Assembly (NCBI GenBank): GCA_964653005.1 | Contig: CAZZAN010000001.1 | Coordinates: forward strand, 237,898-301,897 | DNA length: 64,000 bases | Direction of reading: 5' to 3' | From: an uncultured Dehalococcoidia bacterium | Lineage (GTDB): Bacteria > Chloroflexota > Dehalococcoidia > UBA6926 | Shown: in pieces, positions 10,395-55,960 of the stretch | How the letters are laid out: each line of letters begins with the position of its first letter | Numbering within the stretch: the stretch's first letter is position 1 | The notes under the pieces: generated by a model | What the model saw: only the letters and a program-made list of their open reading frames with translations | The model's database searches: none | Told to the model about the DNA's origin: nothing | Translations under genes and position numbers: made by a program

Positions 10395-10437
10395 AAGTCC
10401 CCCGCTCACCGTGCGGTGAGCGGGGGACTTCTTTTTT
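10395..10437 (+). terminator. Rho-independent terminator of the groESL operon
   Basis: aagtcccccgctcacc-gtgc-ggtgagcgggggactt forms a 16-bp perfect stem, followed by cTTTTTTg. Confidence 0.75.
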
Positions 10438-10492
10438 GCAGAGATTGGTTGTTTGGCCAAACCGCCTGTACCATCACTCAGGGGGTGAACTC

Positions 10493-11212
10493 ATGGGACA
10501 ACTTGATGGCAAGGTCTGCATCATAACCGGAGGGGGCAGGGGCATCGGAAAAGGGATTGCGCGCGCATTCGCCAAGGAAGGCGCGACGCTCGTCCTGGCT
10601 TCGCGGCAACTTGACACTCTCAATGAGACAGCCGAGGAGATGCGGGGCTATGGATCGCCAACCCTCGTGGTCCAGACGGATGTGACCAGCGAGGAGCAGA
10701 TCAAGAGCCTCTTTGAGACGACAATGGCGGAACACGGGCGAGTGGACATCCTGGTGAATAATTCCGGCGTGTTCGACGGCGGCCCCGTCGATGAACTCCC
10801 GTTGGAAACGTGGAATAAGGTCATCGCCATCAACCTCACCGCGGCTTTCATCTGCACGAGAGAGGCCATGAAGATCATGAAGCCGCAGGGCGGCGGACGG
10901 ATCATCAACATCGGCAGCATCTCGTCGAGTATCCCCAGGATGAACTCGGCCGCCTACGCAACCTCCAAGCACGGAATCATCGGCCTCACGAAGTCGACCG
11001 CGCTTGAGGGCAGGGACTTCGGCATCTCAGCGGGCGCGCTACACCCGGGAAGCGTCACCCTGGAGTGGCGCGGGCCTGAGGATCCGAACGCAACGATGTC
11101 GGTGGACGACATCGCCATCGGAGCATTGGCAATGGCGACGATGCCAGAGTATGCGACGATGCTTGACGCGACGGTTCTGCCCATCAGGCAGCCATTCCTG
11201 GGACGGGGGTAA
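10493..11212 (+). CDS. SDR-family oxidoreductase
   Basis: About 239 aa from ATG 10493 with a GGGGGTG RBS; the track's TTG start at 10436 lies inside the groEL terminator. ITGGGRGIGKG and YATSKHG motifs. Its last about 25 codons are duplicated at 14354-14430. Confidence 0.8.
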   Translation: MGQLDGKVCIITGGGRGIGKGIARAFAKEGATLVLASRQLDTLNETAEEMRGYGSPTLVVQTDVTSEEQIKSLFETTMAEHGRVDILVNNSGVFDGGPVDELPLETWNKVIAINLTAAFICTREAMKIMKPQGGGRIINIGSISSSIPRMNSAAYATSKHGIIGLTKSTALEGRDFGISAGALHPGSVTLEWRGPEDPNATMSVDDIAIGALAMATMPEYATMLDATVLPIRQPFLGRG

Positions 11213-11217
11213 CCCGG
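11141..11217 (+). repeat. Direct repeat, left copy (SDR 3' end, MPEYATMLDATVLPIRQPFLGRG*)
   Basis: 77 bp, with about 8 mismatches to 14354-14430. All mismatches fall at third codon positions and both copies encode the identical peptide. Confidence 0.85.
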
Positions 11218-11298
11218 CAGCCCCCCGAAGGCGGGGCGACCGTATACTAAAGTACTGACAGTAAGTCGAAGGGATCTGGTTCGGCATCGGAGGGGGAT

Positions 11299-12597
11299 AT
11301 GACAGCGGCCAAGCGGCCGAGGGTGGGTGCTATAGGATTGAGTTCCTCACAGCTGGATTCCATCAGGCCACTTTGCGGAATGCTTAGGCCAGCCGACTCA
11401 TTGGGCGATTATTGCGAGCTCTACAGTTGGACAGAAACGGACATCTTGGTAGCGTGTAATTTCGATTCTTGGGAGGATGAACCTTCCCCTCTTACCATCG
11501 ATCCTGATGTCAATATACTCGCCTTTAGTGAGTTTTATATCACATGGCCGGATAAGTACTCTACGAACAATTATGCTAACAATCACTACGCATCTACTAG
11601 CAGGAACACTGAGCGTGAACTGTCGGTTGCAGACGCTTGTCCGGATGTATATGAGCCACTTGCTGTTGATTTGATCAAGGAGTTAGCAAGAACTCAAAGC
11701 CTTCCTACAGTGATCGACACTTCCAGAAAGCGTTTTACATCGCTGGTTTCAACTACTTCAAACCAGCCTGTAGCCTTGTACATCGATTTGCCACCTCGAG
11801 CGGAGGGGCCTGACAGAGAACCAGTTCGAGCGTTCGCGCTCCTGCTCCCCAACGTTTCTAATCTCGCGGCCTGGTTCCGAGCCTTCCTTGCGGAGATTCA
11901 CGAAAGGAATCCTAGCCGGGTTCCACATGCCCCGCCTCGTTTGAGCAATCCATCAGATTGGTACACGCCTGAAGAAAGGGACCTAGCAGACCAAATCTCG
12001 GAAGTCAGCACGGAAATCACAGCCTTAACGGACAATCGTGACCGGCTTGAGGAACAACTGGCCATAAAGACGACAGAGGCCGACGCGGAGATTCGGAGCG
12101 CGCTCTGGGCCGACGGAGACGAACTGACCGCATCGGTCAAGGAGATTCTCTCCGGCCTAGGCTTTGTAGTCCGGGACATGGATACCGAATTGGATGAGGG
12201 GCAGCCTAAGCGCGAAGACTTGCGCCTGACACTTCCGGACAACTCTGCCTGGGAAGCCATTGTGGAAGTGAAGGGATATTCAGGCGGCACTAAGACGAGC
12301 GATGCCCGCCAAATTAGGGAGCACCGCGACCACTACACAGAGGAGAAAGGCCAGAAGCCTCATTTGACGTTGTGGCTGGCCAACGCACATCGCAACTATG
12401 CCCCTTCTGATAGACCTGCGCCGGATGGAAACGTCAAGGTGACCGCTGAGGTAGCCGGCATCGTTCACGCGCAAGTGCACGACCTACTTCGACAATGGTT
12501 GCTTGTTCAGGCGGGCAGTCTTGACGCAGCAATTGTCGTGAAAAGTCTGGTCGATGCCGAACCCGGACTCTGGACCCCACCAAAGCCTCCCGACTAG
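11299..12597 (+). CDS. Uncharacterised protein: unknown N-terminal domain, central coiled coil, C-terminal PD-x(n)-E-x-K nuclease-like motif
   Basis: 432 aa with a GGAGGGGG RBS. Shows a coiled-coil-like stretch (ERDLADQISEVSTEITALTDNRDRLEEQLAIKTTEADAEIRS), then LRLTLPDNSAWEAIVEVKGYSGGTK (PD...EVK). The gene is AT-shifted. Confidence 0.6.
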   Translation: MTAAKRPRVGAIGLSSSQLDSIRPLCGMLRPADSLGDYCELYSWTETDILVACNFDSWEDEPSPLTIDPDVNILAFSEFYITWPDKYSTNNYANNHYASTSRNTERELSVADACPDVYEPLAVDLIKELARTQSLPTVIDTSRKRFTSLVSTTSNQPVALYIDLPPRAEGPDREPVRAFALLLPNVSNLAAWFRAFLAEIHERNPSRVPHAPPRLSNPSDWYTPEERDLADQISEVSTEITALTDNRDRLEEQLAIKTTEADAEIRSALWADGDELTASVKEILSGLGFVVRDMDTELDEGQPKREDLRLTLPDNSAWEAIVEVKGYSGGTKTSDARQIREHRDHYTEEKGQKPHLTLWLANAHRNYAPSDRPAPDGNVKVTAEVAGIVHAQVHDLLRQWLLVQAGSLDAAIVVKSLVDAEPGLWTPPKPPD

Positions 12598-12818: not shown

Positions 12819-14303
12819 ATGAAGAGGGCGCTGTGGATAATCCTGATCCTTATTTTGACGCTGGTTGGTCTATGCACCGCGCTGACCGTTGCCTTACCTG
12901 TCCCTGAAGAATCGAATTCGACCGCAGAGCCATCTGAACAGACTCCTCGCGTAGCTGCACAAGTCCTTCATGCAGGACGAGCGGTTAACATGGAGGACTT
13001 TGGCCCGGGCCGCAAATATCCAAGTATCCAGATTTACGGCGAGGTCTGTGATGTAAACGAGTCGAACGCGCCTGAGTACGTGGAAGTATCCTTGTATGGA
13101 ATCATAAAGAGTCGCTACTCAGATTGGTGCATCAAATCAGTGACTTTAGGTGGGGCTTCAGAACTGAGTTCGGGGCTCGAGAAGGGCGATGCATTCGAAG
13201 CAATCTGTACTGGCACGATTTCAGAAGTCTCGGTTCATTTGCTGGTCAGGGAATGCAGTGCATTACCCGAGACAGGCAGACGTGATTCACCCGCACGAGC
13301 GCCAGCCGTGCCGATTTCGTCATCAAGGCTGGCCGATGCGGATTCAACAGAATATCTAAACCCTGAGCGGGTGGTAGAAGAGGTACGGGATACCGTCGTG
13401 CATATAAAGTCTGATTTTGGTAACTGGCCCGGTGTCATTTATGCTACAGAGGGTGTATCCGCGTTCATAGTCACAAATGCTCGCGCTGTTCTACAAGATA
13501 GCCAACTGTACGACACCGTCGAAGTTATGACCTATGACGGCACGTCTTATGGTGGTGCATTAATGATCTGGGATCAGGGCACTGACATTGCCATTATCGG
13601 TATCTGCTGTGGAGAGTTCGAGCCACTTGTATTTGGTGATGCATCCACGCTCGAGATTGGAAGAGAGGTCATCGCCGTTGGTCATCAGGGTCTCACGGAC
13701 ACATCGCTGAAATCGGTGCAGGGTGCAGTTACAGCACATGCCTTGGTGAGCGATGGCACCATCAATGTAATCCGCACTGATGCAATTGTAATTCCACAAA
13801 ATGATGGTGGGCTACTAATATCCCCGTTTGGCAAATTTCTCGGCATCAATACACCGGCGCTTTTCCCTTCGGAGGGCCTAGGATTTGCCGTCACAGAGAA
13901 GGCCATAAGAGAGTTCATCGACGGGTTCAGAACGGGCAATATACGTGTCCCACCCCCATCACCTACGTCTACAGCAACTCCCTTGATTGATGTCTGGGAC
14001 CTTTATGGCGAACATAGCGCCAATGCGATGAGGTTCGAGCGAGATCGAGCAGGAAAACGTGCCCAAATATATGGCCTCGTCTGCAGAATCGACGATAGTG
14101 CTCTTTATTTGTACGCGGATTCAGACAGCCTTCTTGTCGAATCTTGCGCTCATAGGGCGGTTGTCGTAGTTGGTTTAGCCGAAAACTTGTTACTGGAGTT
14201 ATCAGCCGGGGATACGTTTGTGGCGACTTGCCACGTGGCTGGATTTATAGATCAATCTGGTCTGCTTACAGACCATATGTATGTGGCGGGCTGCACCTCC
14301 TAG
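12819..14303 (+). CDS. Membrane-anchored trypsin-fold (HtrA/S1-like) protein whose catalytic His and Ser appear substituted (probable pseudo-protease), flanked by two homologous small domains
   Basis: 494 aa with an N-terminal TM (MKRALWIILILILTLVGLCTALTVAL). S1 motifs are present but altered: TNARAV where TN(A/N)HVV is expected, DIAIIGI, GREVIAVGHQG, IRTDAIVIPQNDGGLL where GNSGGPL is expected, GKFLGINT, GLGFAV. An N-terminal segment (QIYGEVCDVNES...GDAFEAICTG...HLLVRECS) and a C-terminal segment (QIYGLVCRIDDS...GDTFVATCHV...HMYVAGCTS) are visibly related to each other. Confidence 0.6.
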   Translation: MKRALWIILILILTLVGLCTALTVALPVPEESNSTAEPSEQTPRVAAQVLHAGRAVNMEDFGPGRKYPSIQIYGEVCDVNESNAPEYVEVSLYGIIKSRYSDWCIKSVTLGGASELSSGLEKGDAFEAICTGTISEVSVHLLVRECSALPETGRRDSPARAPAVPISSSRLADADSTEYLNPERVVEEVRDTVVHIKSDFGNWPGVIYATEGVSAFIVTNARAVLQDSQLYDTVEVMTYDGTSYGGALMIWDQGTDIAIIGICCGEFEPLVFGDASTLEIGREVIAVGHQGLTDTSLKSVQGAVTAHALVSDGTINVIRTDAIVIPQNDGGLLISPFGKFLGINTPALFPSEGLGFAVTEKAIREFIDGFRTGNIRVPPPSPTSTATPLIDVWDLYGEHSANAMRFERDRAGKRAQIYGLVCRIDDSALYLYADSDSLLVESCAHRAVVVVGLAENLLLELSAGDTFVATCHVAGFIDQSGLLTDHMYVAGCTS

Positions 14304-14353
14304 ACGATACTTTCAGCCTGGACGATGTATGGCGCTGAGATTCTAGGGCTGTG

Positions 14354-14430
14354 ATGCCGGAGTACGCCACCATGCTTGATGCGACGGTTCTGCCCATCAG
14401 GCAGCCGTTCCTGGGGCGCGGTTAACCCGG
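14354..14430 (+). repeat. Direct repeat, right copy (orphan SDR 3' end)
   Basis: It encodes the same 23-aa peptide plus stop as 11141-11217, with synonymous-only differences. It is not attached to any upstream reading frame. Confidence 0.85.
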
Positions 14431-14432
14431 GG

Positions 14433-15455
14433 TCACGCCGTCATTCTGAGGCTTGGGACGGCGTCAAGTCCTCCGTCATCGGGCTGAGCGCCGTGTTCAA
14501 TGACGAACGCGGCGCGGGCGGCGATCATGACACCGTTGTCCGTGCAGAGTCCGGGGCGAGGCCGCCATACGGGCATGTCCGCCTTGCGCAGGACCTCCTC
14601 GCCGAGGGCGCTGTTTGCCGCGACGCCGCCGGACAACATGACCGACTTCGCTTTCGTAGCACGCGCGACCTCCAACAGGCGGTCCGCCAGGCCCGTGACA
14701 GCGGTCTGCTGAAAGCCTGCGGCGATATTGGCGACGTCTTCCTGGGTCAGCGCGTCCGTCCCGCCTCGTTCGTTCACCACGCGGAGCACTGCCGTCTTGA
14801 GGCCGCTGAAACTGAAATCCCATGAGTCCCTGATCAGCGGGCTGGGAAAGCGGACAGGGTCGGTCGCCTCACGAGCGACGCGTTCGATGATCGGGCCACC
14901 CGGGTAGCCGAGGCCAAGCAGCCGCGCCACCTTGTCGAACGCCTCACCCGCGGCATCGTCTCTCGTCTCGCTCAGCAGCCGGTAGTTCCCGTGCTCCTCC
15001 ACCCGCACGATGTCCGTATGGCCGCCGGAGACGATGAGCGCCACGGATGGCAGCAGCGGGTCGCCCCGCTCCTCACTGTCCCACTGCCCGTCCACGATCC
15101 AGTTCGCATAGACGTGTCCCTCAAGATGGTGAACACCGTACAGCGGCAGGTCCCACGCCATCGCGAGCGCCTTGGCGAAATTGACACCCACCAATAGGGA
15201 GCCTGCCAGTCCCGGGCCGTACGTCACGGCGATGGCGTCGAGATTGAGGTCTCCGTCATGTCGCTCCATGACGTCACGCAGGAGCGTGGGAAACGTCAGC
15301 AGGTGTTGGCGTGACGCGATCTCCGGAACCACACCGCCGAATCGCGCATGGATATCCGCCTGCGATGACAGGCCATGGACGATGACCCGACGCCCGTCCT
15401 CAACGATGGCGATGCCCGTCTCATCGCAAGATGATTCGATACCAAGAATTCTCAT
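14433..15455 (-). CDS. tsaD: tRNA N6-adenosine threonylcarbamoyltransferase TsaD (Kae1/Gcp)
   Basis: 340 aa. MRILGIESSCDETGIAIV...HHLEGH... Confidence 0.9.
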   Translation of the reverse strand: MRILGIESSCDETGIAIVEDGRRVIVHGLSSQADIHARFGGVVPEIASRQHLLTFPTLLRDVMERHDGDLNLDAIAVTYGPGLAGSLLVGVNFAKALAMAWDLPLYGVHHLEGHVYANWIVDGQWDSEERGDPLLPSVALIVSGGHTDIVRVEEHGNYRLLSETRDDAAGEAFDKVARLLGLGYPGGPIIERVAREATDPVRFPSPLIRDSWDFSFSGLKTAVLRVVNERGGTDALTQEDVANIAAGFQQTAVTGLADRLLEVARATKAKSVMLSGGVAANSALGEEVLRKADMPVWRPRPGLCTDNGVMIAARAAFVIEHGAQPDDGGLDAVPSLRMTA

Positions 15456-16288: not shown

Positions 16289-17551
16289 ATGCAGGAGGTC
16301 GAGACCATTAGCCTGGCGCTATTGGGGCTCTCCTTTCTCTTTTCGGCAATCTTCTCAGGCACGGAGGCGGCTTTCCTTGCGTCTCAACCGCATCGCCTGA
16401 GGCACCGCGCCGAGAACGGTTCGCGAGGGGCGCGCATCGCGGAGGGGATGAAGGAAAGGCCGGAGCGATTCCTTTCAACGCTCCTGGTCGGCAACAACCT
16501 CACCAACACGGCCGCCGCGGCCATCGCAACCAGCATCGCCCTGACACTGCTTGAGAACTCGGAGCAGGGGCTCGTTGCCGCGACGGTCATTACAACGATT
16601 GCCCTGCTCATCTTCGCGGAAATCACGCCAAAGACGGTGGGCGCGCGTCATGCGGAGCGCGTCATGATTTTCCTTGCGCCGCCTTTCCGTGTTTTCTCAT
16701 TCGTTTTCGCACCCGTAACGATTGCCTTCACGACATTCGCGGGCTTCGTTGCATGGCTGACGGGCGGTACGCGCCGCGCAATGGTGGACGCGCAGGAGTT
16801 CCGCGCAATGATCAGGACCGGCGTGGAACAGGGAACCGTGGAGGAGCGGGAGGCGGAGCTTGTCCACAAGGTGTTCCAGTTCGGCGACCGTATGGTCCGG
16901 GAAATCATGACGCCGCGCACGGAGATCATCTGGGTGCGCAACGGAACAACGCTCTCGGAGTTTCTTGAAATCTACGCCCGTCATTCCCACTCACACTTCC
17001 CTGTTCTGGGGGATGAGCCGGATACCGTGGCGGGCATCCTCGCCATCAAGAGCGTCCTCCACAAGCACGCCCTCGGTGAACTCACGATGAACAGCTCCAT
17101 CACCACGGACCTGCGTGAGACACACTTCGTTCCGGAGACCAAGATGATCGACGACCTCATGGATGAGATGAGGGCGCAGCGGTCGCGCATGGTGATGGTC
17201 GTCGACGAGTTTGGCGACATCTCCGGTCTTGTGACGCTTAGCCGCGCCATCGAACTCATCGTCGGACGTGTCGATGATCCCGGCGACCCGCAAGCGTTCC
17301 AGGCGGTGGATGAGCGCACCGTGCGCGTGGACGGCATCATGCACATCGACGAACTGGCCGAGCAGTTGAACATCCACCTGCCGGACGGCGACGGCGAGTA
17401 TGAGACCATCGCCGGGTTCGTGCTCAAGCAGCTTGGACGGATTCCCGAGGAGGGAGAGGCCCTCGTGCACGGCCCTTACGAGATCACGGTGGCGCAGATC
17501 CACGGCGCGCGCATCGACGAGGTCACGGTACGCACGGAGGACACGGGGTGA
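16289..17551 (+). CDS. CNNM/CorC-HlyC family membrane protein (DUF21-CBS pair-CorC_HlyC)
   Basis: 420 aa. N-terminal TM domain, then CBS pair (VREIMTPRTEI...), then the C-terminal transporter-associated domain. Confidence 0.85.
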   Translation: MQEVETISLALLGLSFLFSAIFSGTEAAFLASQPHRLRHRAENGSRGARIAEGMKERPERFLSTLLVGNNLTNTAAAAIATSIALTLLENSEQGLVAATVITTIALLIFAEITPKTVGARHAERVMIFLAPPFRVFSFVFAPVTIAFTTFAGFVAWLTGGTRRAMVDAQEFRAMIRTGVEQGTVEEREAELVHKVFQFGDRMVREIMTPRTEIIWVRNGTTLSEFLEIYARHSHSHFPVLGDEPDTVAGILAIKSVLHKHALGELTMNSSITTDLRETHFVPETKMIDDLMDEMRAQRSRMVMVVDEFGDISGLVTLSRAIELIVGRVDDPGDPQAFQAVDERTVRVDGIMHIDELAEQLNIHLPDGDGEYETIAGFVLKQLGRIPEEGEALVHGPYEITVAQIHGARIDEVTVRTEDTG

Positions 17552-17582
17552 CGGAAGTAATGAAATTTCTTGGAGGGATTGG

Positions 17583-18641
17583 GTGGAAGACATCAAGCTA
17601 TGGGAACTAGCCGTAACTGAGGCCAAGCCTTTGGGTTCGAATAAGAAGTGGGAGTCCGAGAAGTCATTTGAAGATACTCTCGTCGAGAACCCGGAACTGC
17701 TGCTCGACGGCCTGACACTGGTGGGGCGGCAGACTCCAACCGAAGGCGGACGAGCGCTTGATCTGCTAGGTGTAGATTCGTACGGCAAGCTGGTCGTGTT
17801 CGAGTTGAAGCGCGATACGCTGTCGCGTGAGGCCGTCGCGCAAATCATCGATTACGCATCCTTTCTCGACAATCTGGATCTCAATGCCCTGGCCGAGCAC
17901 ATTTCGGAAAAGTCAGGCGCTCACGGAATTGCTAAAATCGATAACTTTCAAGAGTGGTACAGCAGCGAGGGTTTTGGCGAATTGGAGTCGTTGAAGCCGT
18001 TGCGGATGTTCCTGGTCGGTCTCGGAGCAGATGACCGCACGGAGCGCATGGTAAGGTTCCTCGCCCAGAACAGCGGGATGGATATCTCGATGCTGACCTT
18101 TCACGCGTTCGACTACGACGGCAAGACTATCCTTGCCAAGCAAGTGGAGGTGGAAGCAGACGCCGAACCCGAGCGGCGCTCCACAAGGCGACGTCCGTCT
18201 CAGGAGGAGTTCAACCAGCGTTTCGATGAGAAAAGGGCAGACTTTGGAGTCGGTAATCTCATCGATGACGTTCGCCGCATGTTCAGAGAGAATTGGCCAT
18301 CATCGACAGAACGCGCAGACACCTGGGGCATCAATTTCCAACTTCAGCCAAATCGTAGGCGCTATGCACGCTATGCGCGCATTGATCCCTGGCGAAAGGA
18401 AACAATAAGCATCGTATTCTTTGACCGCGCCAAGACATTGTGCCCGGATGAGTTCAGAGGACCCTTAGAGAAGATTAGCTATGTAACGTATCCGCGAAAT
18501 CGCGACCCGCTGGGAGACCCTAAGGCAGAGATTCAGTTCCACCTGACCCCGCAGGAGTGGGAAACCCACAAAGAGAGCTTGACCGCTCTCGCGCAAGCCG
18601 TCTACGCAGCATGGCAGAATAATGGGGCGGAATCGGACTAA
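17583..18641 (+). CDS. NucS/DUF91-like PD-(D/E)xK nuclease-domain protein
   Basis: About 352 aa from GTG 17583, with a GGAGGG RBS 5 nt upstream. LVGRQTPTEGGRALDLLGVDSYGKLVVFELKR matches the NucS-C/DUF91 core (GR..DLL..D..G.LVV.ELKR). GC is moderately below the neighbours. The track's start at 17400 overlaps corC. Confidence 0.6.
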   Translation: MEDIKLWELAVTEAKPLGSNKKWESEKSFEDTLVENPELLLDGLTLVGRQTPTEGGRALDLLGVDSYGKLVVFELKRDTLSREAVAQIIDYASFLDNLDLNALAEHISEKSGAHGIAKIDNFQEWYSSEGFGELESLKPLRMFLVGLGADDRTERMVRFLAQNSGMDISMLTFHAFDYDGKTILAKQVEVEADAEPERRSTRRRPSQEEFNQRFDEKRADFGVGNLIDDVRRMFRENWPSSTERADTWGINFQLQPNRRRYARYARIDPWRKETISIVFFDRAKTLCPDEFRGPLEKISYVTYPRNRDPLGDPKAEIQFHLTPQEWETHKESLTALAQAVYAAWQNNGAESD

Positions 18642-54188: not shown

Positions 54189-55960
54189 GTGCTTACCACG
54201 CAGATTCTTACCCCCAAGCAGTTATTCCAGAAAGACGTTCACTACACCATTCCGGACTTCCAACGGCCGTACGTATGGTCGCAGGAAGACCAGTGGGAGC
54301 CGTTGTGGAGCGACTTGCAGAATGTTGCGGAAGACTATCTTGAGCGCCGCGCAGAGACTGTAGACGCCGTAGAGGCTCAGGCCAAGGCGAGGGCACACTT
54401 TCTTGGTGCTATCGTCATGCAGCAGGTGCCAACACCCGCAAAGGACATCGAACGCAGAGAGGTGATCGACGGGCAGCAACGCGTCACTACGATTCAGTTG
54501 CTGCTGGATGCCACGCAAGAGGTCTTGGAAGAGCGTGGGCATCGCTTGCAGCTAGACGGCTAGCAAAGTATGTGCTGAACGACAAGGATCTTGTAGAGGA
54601 TGCCCCCGAACAGCATTTTAAACTGTCGCCCACCCGAGGAGACCGGGAAGCGTTCAAGCACGCGATGGACAACGGACTCGCCGTAAGCGAGTTTGAGGAT
54701 TCGTTGCTTGTTCAAGCCCACGAGTTCTTTAAGGATCAGGTTAACCAGTGGCTTGAGAGTGGACTGTCGTCAGAGGAATCGATGACTGAGGCTCTTGAAA
54801 CAGCAGTCACTTCCATGTTTGAGATGGTGGTTATCGATCTCGGACTCGAAGACGATGCCAATATCATTTTCGAGACACTGAATGCTCGAGGAACGCCCCT
54901 TGAACAGTCAGACCTCATCAAGAATTACGTTCTATCTCAGTTGCCCCAAGACGCTCCGGGTCGCGAGAATATCTGGGAAGGTCTGGACAATCCGTGGTGG
55001 AGGGAGACTGTCAGGCAGGGGCGTTTGCTCAGACCTCGGCTCGATATGCTATTCAACTATTGGCTCGCCATGCGTACAGGCAGTGAGGTTCGACCACCTG
55101 ATGTCTTTCGTGAGTTCAGAAAACATGCGGAGGATAGCAACATCGCCACAATAATGCCGGATGTCCAGAGGGACCTCCAAAACTACAGGAGATATGACCA
55201 AGGGCCCCGCCCGGAGGAAATCGAATCTTTCTATTACCGGATGGACGTGATGCAGGTTGGGGTGTTCACGCCTGCACTCCTGTTGCTTCTTTCCGCTGAT
55301 AATGACTCGCAAGTGCGTGCCTTCAACGCCCTCGAGAGTTTTCTGGTGCGTCGAATGGTCTCCAGGCGAACAACCAAAGACTACAACGGCTTGGCCTTGC
55401 AACTCGCAAACAGACTTCGCAATGGCGGACTAGCGGATCCGGCAAGGACAGTTATTGACTACTTTAGGGAACAAACAGCGGATTCTCGAGAGTGGCCGGA
55501 GGATGATAGCCTGCAAACCGCCATGGTTTCTTTGCCAATCTACCGTCTATTGACAAGAGGAAGGCTGCGGCTAGTACTGGAGGGGATAGAGACATCTCTT
55601 CGATCCAATAAGGCTGAGCAGCCTGACGTGCCGCGAAATCTCACGATTGAACACCTCATGCCACTTGGATGGGAGGAGAACTGGCCTCTGTACGAACCGT
55701 ATGATCGTGAACGGCGCAACAGTCTTGTGCATACAATCGGCAACCTGACTCTGGTCAATCGGAGGCTCAACTCATCCATGTCCAACGGCCCTTGGGAGGA
55801 CAAGCGAAAGGAATTACAGGAGCATAGTGTTATGACGCTGAATGCGGAATTGAGCCACCAGGATTCTTGGAACGAAGAGGAAATCATCGCGCGCAGTCGG
55901 CGCATGGCTAATCTGATAGCCAAGTGTTGGCCCGGCCCCGATTCCTCCCGGTGGGATTAG
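54189..55960 (+). pseudogene. GmrSD-like type IV restriction endonuclease (DUF262-DUF1524) disrupted by a frameshift
   Basis: Frame A (54189-54563) carries the DUF262 motifs IPDFQRPYVW and VIDGQQRVTT, then TAG. Frame B is open from before 54545 through 55960 and carries the DUF1524 HNH-like TIEHLMPLGW...NSLVHTIGNLTLVNRRLNSSMSN. The two frames overlap, consistent with a single-nt indel near 54558. Confidence 0.65.

Follow-up and report, generated by a model that had tools for sequence, protein, structure and literature searches.

Nucleases with which the protein may be compared

Among described systems, the closest functional analogies to the protein considered here are Can2/Card1, which are sensor-gated PD-(D/E)xK nucleases, and Shedu, a single-gene system with a regulatory or sensor region at the N-terminus and a PD-(D/E)xK nuclease at the C-terminus (Shedu is described as a tetramer in bioRxiv 10.1101/2023.08.10.552762). 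FokI (Protein Data Bank, PDB, entries 1FOK and 2FOK) and its relatives N.BspD6I and R.BspD6I are also to be counted among the closest systems. Our subject is a 432-amino-acid (aa) protein encoded in a 64,000-nucleotide (nt) stretch of DNA (the window) from an uncultured Dehalococcoidia bacterium (GenBank assembly GCA_964653005.1, contig CAZZAN010000001.1, positions 237,898 to 301,897, forward strand). It has an N-terminal domain with the fold of class-I glutamine amidotransferases (GATases) and ThuA, a coiled coil, and a C-terminal domain that, to judge from a structural model and from conservation, is a FokI-type PD-(D/E)xK cleavage module. We suggest, with moderate confidence, that it is a self-contained, conditionally active endonuclease directed against foreign DNA, and that it protects either the host or the element that carries it.

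The likeness to Shedu lies at the level of logic only, the nuclease being of another sub-family (here FokI-like) and a conserved GATase-like fold being present where Shedu has a variable module. An earlier reading of the DNA, made without database searches (referred to below as the original prediction), had likened the architecture to that of anti-phage nucleases such as Shedu, with a variable sensor domain at the N-terminus. Membership of Shedu is not borne out: no DUF4263/SduA match was obtained from Pfam or PADLOC for the 432-aa protein at E ≤ 1, nor any for 76 diverse representatives of its family, the nearest fold is that of FokI, and the fold of the N-terminal domain is constant in the short and long forms of the family rather than hypervariable. 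In Can2/Card1 and VC1899 (CARF-nuclease ancillary effectors of CRISPR systems) and in Cap4, the sensor is a CARF or SAVED domain and not of the GATase/ThuA type, and the neighbourhoods of the family described here have neither cyclase nor CRISPR genes as a conserved feature. The sensor folds of the type IV enzymes MspJI/AspBHI and of END nucleases are likewise different (SRA-like or an inactive EndoIII), and END nucleases have a PLD nuclease, not PD-(D/E)xK (PMC12191111). Mrr and NucS, to which the original prediction had pointed for checking, gave no Mrr_cat or NucS_C match to a hidden Markov model (HMM), and membership of either was rejected; the N-terminal fold, moreover, is neither SRA, EVE nor winged-helix. 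As for FokI and the type IIS restriction-modification enzymes, the differences are the GATase-like domain and coiled coil in place of the triple winged-helix recognition domain of FokI, the lack of a companion methyltransferase, and the lack of significant membership at the level of HMM searches; without such a recognition domain and a cognate methyltransferase, the protein is not a type IIS restriction-modification enzyme. The kin of the N-terminal domain are found among non-catalytic class-I GATase-like domains such as ThuA, the GIFT domain of IFT52/GldG, and STM3548.

Sequence searches assigned the protein to no family. Nothing beyond noise was found in Pfam-A, PADLOC-DB, NCBIfam or PHROGs (E ≤ 1), the models for FokI-family nucleases, GATases and resolvases being among those that gave no match, and PDB sequences yielded only chance-level matches to single-sequence and profile searches (the profile found no nuclease). 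The 76 representatives also had no match in Pfam-A. Literature on FokI-like defence, on GATases combined with nucleases, on defence in sponge symbionts and on ECA1632 contained no description of this architecture (a very recent one is possible), and no case of a GATase/ThuA-like fold fused to a nuclease was present in the domain libraries and literature searched.

A predicted FokI-type cleavage domain

The gene and the parts of its product are arranged as follows.

11218..11298 (+), gene leader, with a Shine-Dalgarno sequence GGAGG at 11289-11293, 5 nt ahead of the ATG
11299..12597 (+), coding sequence of the 432-aa protein (GATase-like domain, coiled coil, FokI-like nuclease), with an ATG start, at least 375 full-length homologues and an AlphaFold model
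11299..11943 (+), N-terminal domain (residues 1-215), class-I GATase/ThuA-like alpha/beta fold
11968..12087 (+), coiled-coil helix (residues 224-263), continuous in the model, with conserved a/d hydrophobics
12106..12573 (+), PD-(D/E)xK nuclease domain (residues 270-425), like the FokI cleavage domain
12208..12279 (+), predicted catalytic core K304-R-E306-D307...E323-V-K325-G-Y327, with invariant columns in alignments A1, A3 and A5
12217-12219, 12265-12267 and 12271-12273 (+), codons for D307, E323 and K325, respectively
12235-12240 (+), P313-D314, in a variable hairpin loop within the catalytic-core stretch

The open reading frame (ORF) is exactly as it had been given in the original prediction in length and coordinates, and the C-terminal peptide quoted there, LRLTLPDNSAWEAIVEVKGYSGGTKTSDARQIREH, is present in the translation. 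AlphaFold2, applied to an alignment of 43 close homologues (A1), gave a model with a mean predicted local distance difference test score (pLDDT) of 87.2 and a predicted template modelling score (pTM) of 0.59, a value at which the relative placement of the domains is unreliable. The model comprises an alpha/beta domain (residues 1-215), a helix of 40 residues (224-263) and, at 270-425, a core of alpha-beta-beta-beta-alpha-beta topology to which further helices are added. When the model was compared with the PDB by Foldseek, FokI was the top match (1fok_A, E 8.9e-5), followed by NucS/EndoMS, Hjc, EcoRV and EcoO109I. Because FokI comes first and other PD-(D/E)xK nucleases next, we regard the PD-(D/E)xK fold as confirmed; it had been proposed from the letters alone, and is also borne out by the topology of the model and by the invariance of an acidic residue and a (D/E)xK.

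The predicted catalytic set is D307-x15-E323-x-K325, together with D295, K304, E306 and Q338, the acid of the site, D307, lying within K304-R-E306-D307-L-R, 16 residues ahead of E323. Among the close homologues of A1, D307, E323, K325, D335 and Q338 are invariant. The first three remain so when the actinobacterial branch is added (A3) and when three branches with less than 20% identity to one another are compared (A5), the full list of invariants in this last alignment being E46, P184, E226, L276, D295, E306, D307, E323, K325, G326, Q338, N362, R365, P369 and R372. All of the 76 diverse representatives have E306, D307 and the Lys, and at least 90% of them have the Glu. A D...ExK string by itself is a chance-level occurrence, and it is the invariance across a divergent superfamily, combined with the structural match, that raises this one above chance. 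The original prediction had placed the site at 'PD-x11-EVK', and was right about EVK (E323 and K325), but the supposed PD (P313-D314) occupies a freely varying hairpin loop, which in homologues in A1 reads HQDVP, LPDRS, HEETP, QGIPG and others; the true Asp is D307.

At the level of sequence, the family profile and the FokI cleavage domain are marginally similar (hhalign, E 0.023), yet the catalytic register is correct: W-AIVEVKGYSGG is paired with DYGVIVDTKAYSGG of FokI, E323 with D467 and K325 with K469, and the C-terminal 'AGSLD..' helix with 'AGTLTLEEV' of FokI. (The FokI sequence used was checked against residues 381-576 of 1fok_A, with E 8e-131.) The catalytic residues of FokI being D450, D467 and K469, D450-x16-D467-x-K469 corresponds to D307-x15-E323-x-K325, with a distance from D to (D/E) of 17 in FokI and 16 here. 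Other common strings are RKPD/KRED (we take the FokI RKPD to be the counterpart of K304-D307), (D/E)xK-x-YSGG, and 'AG(T/S)L' in the C-terminal helix. Model and alignments together show the C-terminal domain as a putative FokI-type PD-(D/E)xK cleavage module in which the metal-binding and catalytic set is complete and invariant, and the 432-aa protein is thus predicted, from fold and site, to be a real but uncharacterised DNA-cutting enzyme.

The N-terminal domain and the coiled coil

By structure, the N-terminal domain (residues 1-215) belongs with the class-I GATase/ThuA-like folds. The original prediction had described a 200-aa domain of no recognisable family, which stands as far as sequence families are concerned but not for the fold, which is recognisable. 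E46 is invariant in every alignment made, that of the 76 representatives included, and D48 is invariant across the short-form branches. C26, C114 and an NTERE motif are invariant in the sponge-symbiont clade only (A1), and the actinobacterial branch does not have them; the three branches have no invariant Cys column in common (A5), and a search by conservation identified no Cys-His-Glu triad (the position of the nucleophile elbow was not mapped onto the model). Since neither C26 nor C114 is conserved beyond one clade, we reject a catalytic Cys, and as NTERE is no better conserved across branches, an active amidotransferase is disfavoured: these comparisons show a conserved, non-catalytic GATase-like domain. 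The domain is acidic in the window protein (pI ~5, calculated as 4.9; the family mean is ~6.1), as is the nuclease domain (pI ~5), and this, with the invariant acidic E46 (and D48 in the short-form branches), makes it an unlikely reader of DNA. Structure comparison found the same fold in short and long forms, from which it appears that the domain has diverged in sequence and has not been swapped.

The coiled coil that had been predicted ahead of the nuclease is present in the model as one 40-residue helix. Hydrophobic residues at 229, 233, 236, 240, 243, 250, 254 and 261 are conserved family-wide in a 3-4 heptad pattern, with a power maximum at a period of 3.5, and it is this conservation and periodicity that justify the label of coiled coil.

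A large superfamily without annotation

A search of 5.8 billion proteins revealed at least 375 full-length relatives at ~50-72% identity, none with a Pfam domain, for which the sole name was 'hypothetical protein [Dehalococcoidia bacterium]'. In an HMM search of 1.84 billion cluster representatives, 4,277 proteins were found at E ≤ 1e-3, 1,122 of them at E ≤ 1e-30. By length they divide into a short form of ~430 aa and a long form of ~560-620 aa, and they occur in Chloroflexota, Actinomycetota, Enterobacterales, cyanobacterial plasmids, prophages and elsewhere. The succession of GATase-like domain, coiled coil and FokI-like nuclease is constant, and defines a large superfamily that has gone unannotated.

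A scan of one genome per species gave 38 loci, in Dehalococcoidia/Chloroflexota, Tepidiformaceae, Ca. Aldehydirespiratoraceae, Ca. Poriferisodalis, Latescibacterota and Bryobacterales; many of these genomes are, judging from their bin names, presumably metagenome-assembled genomes of sponge symbionts. Copies at 40-55% identity are spread over several phyla, and some genomes have two copies that are ~50% identical to each other. Nocardia, Agreia and Pseudonocardia have relatives at ~30% identity, and the actinobacterial branch includes ~445-aa proteins of Agreia sp. Leaf283, Arthrobacter glacialis and Curtobacterium, all annotated as 'hypothetical protein'. A third branch, the enterobacterial long form, was uncovered by tblastn against plasmids: residues 174-426 of a 585-aa Klebsiella plasmid protein aligned with the family profile (hhalign probability 98%, E 1.7e-13). 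At least 387 proteins of ~560 aa from across Enterobacterales belong to it, every one of them likewise named 'hypothetical protein' and lacking a Pfam domain (a DNA search for homologues in E. coli found none). Profile-profile comparison of short and long forms indicated homology over residues 146-425 (probability 99.2%, E 8e-20), and the long form, when modelled with AlphaFold (pLDDT 86.8), presented the same structural picture as the short form.

Genomic contexts of the family

In agreement with the single-effector island gene of the original prediction, this is a solitary accessory gene. All-against-all clustering of ORFs of 90 aa or more revealed no conserved neighbour in 37 loci, nor was there any broadly conserved small ORF (30-120 aa) within 600 nt of the gene. 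A conserved partner gene is thereby rejected for these loci, the only shared neighbours being those of one sub-clade (below), and a toxin-antitoxin or polymorphic toxin-immunity pair is disfavoured by the lack of a conserved adjacent ORF of either size class as well as by distribution and context. A methyltransferase (N6_N4_Mtase) lies within two genes at only two of 35 loci, which, with the lack of a conserved neighbour, rules out a methyltransferase partner; in the window, no methyltransferase adjoins the gene, and there is no methyltransferase model among the 25 of 32 PADLOC families listed for 45 ORFs.

The 129 flanking ORFs that were scanned are mostly unrelated metabolic genes. Among them were matches to McrBC (2), N6_N4 methylase (2), DDE transposase (2), DndB, SoFic, DRT, PDC-S15, HEC-05, Ppl and a GajB-like protein; at single loci, the gene is accompanied by DndB and NYN genes, by Fic and recombinase fragments, or by transposase fragments and AlpA. 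The sub-clade with shared neighbours consists of sponge-symbiont loci (L029, L031, L034, L035, L040 and L043), where a convergent downstream ORF of 190-360 aa encodes an HTH-like (helix-turn-helix) segment, a coiled coil and an Arg-rich C-terminus (for example, 11547-12434, minus strand, in L029); the downstream flank in L037 is ~85% identical DNA. In L029 and L031 this ORF is followed by genes for a TrwB/TraD-type coupling protein and then a Replic_Relax protein, because of which these copies look like cargo of mobilisable elements. An EEP-family nuclease gene is located upstream in L029, L031 and L034.

A leader of 80-135 nt upstream of the gene is conserved in family members, and is carried into unrelated contexts. 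At five loci (L011, L013, L015, L016 and L022) there is a conserved leader ~135 nt upstream of the start, in which a short hairpin accompanies a TTGAC -35-like box; the hairpin shows a compensatory change (GTCGCA…TGCGAC in L011, ATCGCA…TGCGAT in L013), so a regulatory element may travel with the gene. The leader shared by the window and its 72% identical orthologue (L009) is different from this one.

Long-form genes are present on 16 plasmids and 21 IMG/VR viral contigs. The Citrobacter copy lies within a lambdoid prophage, in an accessory region that has replication genes on one side and RusA/Q on the other, and colicin, GIY-YIG and DUF4365 genes adjoin it; the Pectobacterium copy (locus tag ECA1632) is part of an AlpA/H-NS/PLD island; and that of K. 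pneumoniae is a single-gene insertion. The F-type conjugative plasmid NZ_CP024642.1 of Klebsiella michiganensis (L047) carries two superfamily copies, one full-length (131051-132739), the other ~22% identical to the window protein (tblastn), annotated as two overlapping ORFs (170 and 393 aa) and adjoining pifC and a gene for a P-loop NTPase (PifA-like). The short form had no match in INPHARED or IMG/VR, and a phage-encoded origin was rejected for it. As a whole, the family is widespread and moves horizontally, its accessory settings being prophage moron regions, plasmids, and elements that are integrative or mobilisable.

The island in the window

The gene is one of two in a 3.2-kb block of low GC content (0.51-0.56 at 11-14 kb, compared with 0.60-0.65 in the flanks, in agreement with the island setting proposed originally), the other features of which are as follows.

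11140..11217 (+), direct-repeat copy 1 (attL-like), comprising the last 23 codons and stop of a short-chain dehydrogenase (SDR) gene (10436..11212), translating to MPEYATMLDATVLPIRQPFLGRG and a stop
12819..14303 (+), second cargo gene, whose 494-aa product has a transmembrane segment at its N-terminus and a protease domain that is trypsin-like, of HtrA/DegP type (Pfam Trypsin_2, 1.3e-10)
14353..14430 (+), direct-repeat copy 2 (attR-like), a relic of the SDR gene 3' end, adjoining the end of convergent tsaD (14433..15455, minus)

The two 78-nt repeats are 88% identical, and their nine nucleotide differences are all synonymous, the same 23-aa peptide and stop being encoded by both. Such a pair, both encoding the 3' end of the SDR gene and differing only synonymously, marks an element that entered a gene at its 3' end and brought a replacement for that end with it. 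The 3.2-kb block lacks an integrase, and the window has no tRNA gene. In the nearest relative with conserved flanks (tsaD 63% identical), tsaD directly abuts groEL and the nuclease gene is absent, as it is from all of 80 tsaD loci that were fetched; with the best relative only 63% identical this empty-site comparison is coarse, and it is consistent with accessory status. The 72% orthologue (L009) occupies the same SDR...tsaD site with other companion genes, and DNA similarity between it and the window begins at ~11221, immediately after repeat copy 1.

The protease gene, for which the NCBIfam matches (HtrA-type) were all under cut-off, is absent beside the 72% orthologue and beside all the other family members examined, and the protease can therefore be ruled out as a functional partner. 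By eye, its N- and C-terminal flanks are alike (…IYGEVCDVNE… and …IYGLVCRIDD…), as if a small domain had been duplicated. In L009 (12720-13766), the variable region by the orthologue contains a 502-aa ORF made up of about 12 tandem 72-nt (24-aa) repeats, and a perfect 25-nt direct repeat (12500, 15094) brackets this sub-island at the tsaD end.

A possible role in defence, and the alternatives

That a large unannotated family should ride on islands, prophages and plasmids makes single-gene defence the most likely role. Each FokI-type domain has one active site, and two domains pair for a double-strand cut. If the nuclease domain of the 432-aa protein likewise has one active site, a double-strand break would need two such domains, and, because domains of this type must pair, we propose that the coiled coil may supply or control their dimerisation. 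The acidic GATase-like domain might act as a sensor or lock that keeps the nuclease off until an invasion cue (a phage or plasmid protein, or a small molecule) binds to it; the nuclease so released would cleave DNA, and either the invader or the infected cell would be stopped. More tentatively still, the protein could be the founding example of a widespread form of single-gene immunity in which a non-catalytic GATase-like sensor and a coiled-coil switch license FokI-type dimerisation, the cue being a phage protein, a metabolite or sugar-modified DNA.

Several points weigh against a defence nuclease of this kind. We infer the defence role itself from genomic context, in which defence genes are a minority of neighbours and most are metabolic, so that the signal from guilt by association is modest; the short form is absent from the two virus collections; and PADLOC-DB v2.0.0 (2023) contains no match for the window protein, its Agreia and Klebsiella relatives or the 76 representatives. 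To these may be added the marginal hhalign score with FokI and the low pTM of the model. The gating (dimerisation, auto-inhibition and trigger) is pure conjecture, to be credited less readily than the defence role.

The main alternative to conditional defence is a restriction enzyme that senses DNA, be it modification-dependent as in type IV or otherwise, in which a GATase/GIFT-like N-terminal domain would directly read some feature of foreign DNA (glycosylated or hypermodified bases, for instance) and the FokI-like domain would cut nearby. Such an enzyme would need no methyltransferase, in keeping with a solitary nuclease that has no cognate one, but the N-terminal domain does not have a known modified-base reader fold (SRA, EVE, YTH or winged-helix), both it and the nuclease domain are acidic in the window protein (the family mean for the former being less extreme), and its most conserved residues, E46 and D48, are themselves acidic; we consider this reading unlikely. 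Even harder to sustain is the idea that the GATase-like domain is catalytically active, as an amidotransferase or peptidase, in a bifunctional enzyme that also contains the nuclease. The class-I GATase fold, the invariance of E46 everywhere and that of C26, C114 and NTERE in the sponge-symbiont clade might be cited for it, but the loss of both Cys residues and of NTERE from the actinobacterial branch, the want of a Cys column common to three branches or of a conserved Cys-His-Glu triad, and the failure to match any GATase HMM leave it scarcely credible.

Rather improbable, in our view, is a selfish or maintenance function for a mobile element, whether in excluding competitors, in addiction, or in the element's own recombination or transfer. 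The gene is always in accessory DNA and is common on plasmids and prophages, it has its own conserved leader, one sub-clade has coupling-protein and Replic_Relax companions, and the window island has att-like repeats without an integrase; all this would fit, but neither an antitoxin nor an immunity ORF is conserved with the gene, its place with respect to integrase, relaxase and replication genes varies, and many insertions are solitary and chromosomal (as in K. pneumoniae). Exclusion of competitors would in any case be mechanistically the same as defence. A housekeeping nuclease of DNA repair or recombination, acting on mismatches like NucS/EndoMS or as a resolvase like Hjc, is very improbable in view of the patchy distribution across phyla, the two divergent copies in some genomes, the absence of the gene from the syntenic site of the nearest relative and from the 80 tsaD loci, the low-GC island with att-like repeats, and the lack of a NucS_C or resolvase HMM match, the top structural match being to the cleavage domain of a restriction enzyme.

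If the 432-aa protein and its relatives are indeed conditional defence nucleases, a large unannotated superfamily would join the single-gene immune nucleases, the GATase/ThuA-like sensor fold would be newly linked to nucleases, and the FokI-type cleavage module would be seen to be active outside type IIS restriction-modification. The protein would then be a natural, ligand-gated relative of the zinc-finger and TALE nucleases (ZFN/TALEN), of possible interest for genome engineering, and the prophage- and plasmid-borne members in Klebsiella, Citrobacter, Enterobacter, Serratia, Yersinia and Salmonella would bear on host range in phage therapy. Should the role in defence not be confirmed, there would still be a well-defined new family of PD-(D/E)xK nucleases.

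Other possible defence genes in the window

Finally, we draw attention to other ORFs of the window with matches to defence proteins. A 413-aa protein (17400..18641, +) has a NucS_C-like nuclease domain (Pfam, 4.5e-7) and a strong match to PDC-S11, a PADLOC family of candidate defence proteins (E 5.6e-36), and its synteny is kept in the genome of the 72% orthologue (L004). A low-GC (0.53) ORF of 462 aa (54572..55960, +) has kin of the DUF262/DUF1524 (GmrSD/SspE) type in the PDB (9jfl_B, E 1.6e-5) and is probably the source of PADLOC matches to mREase_IV (1e-45) and SspE. No DGxQR motif was found in it, and because of this and of a 470-nt gap upstream it may be truncated at its N-terminus. The other PADLOC matches among the window's 45 large ORFs, some of which may be housekeeping look-alikes, were to PDC-M41B (1e-90), PDC-M30B (8e-88), Orf5-type (2e-64), HEC-06 (1e-42) and mad2.

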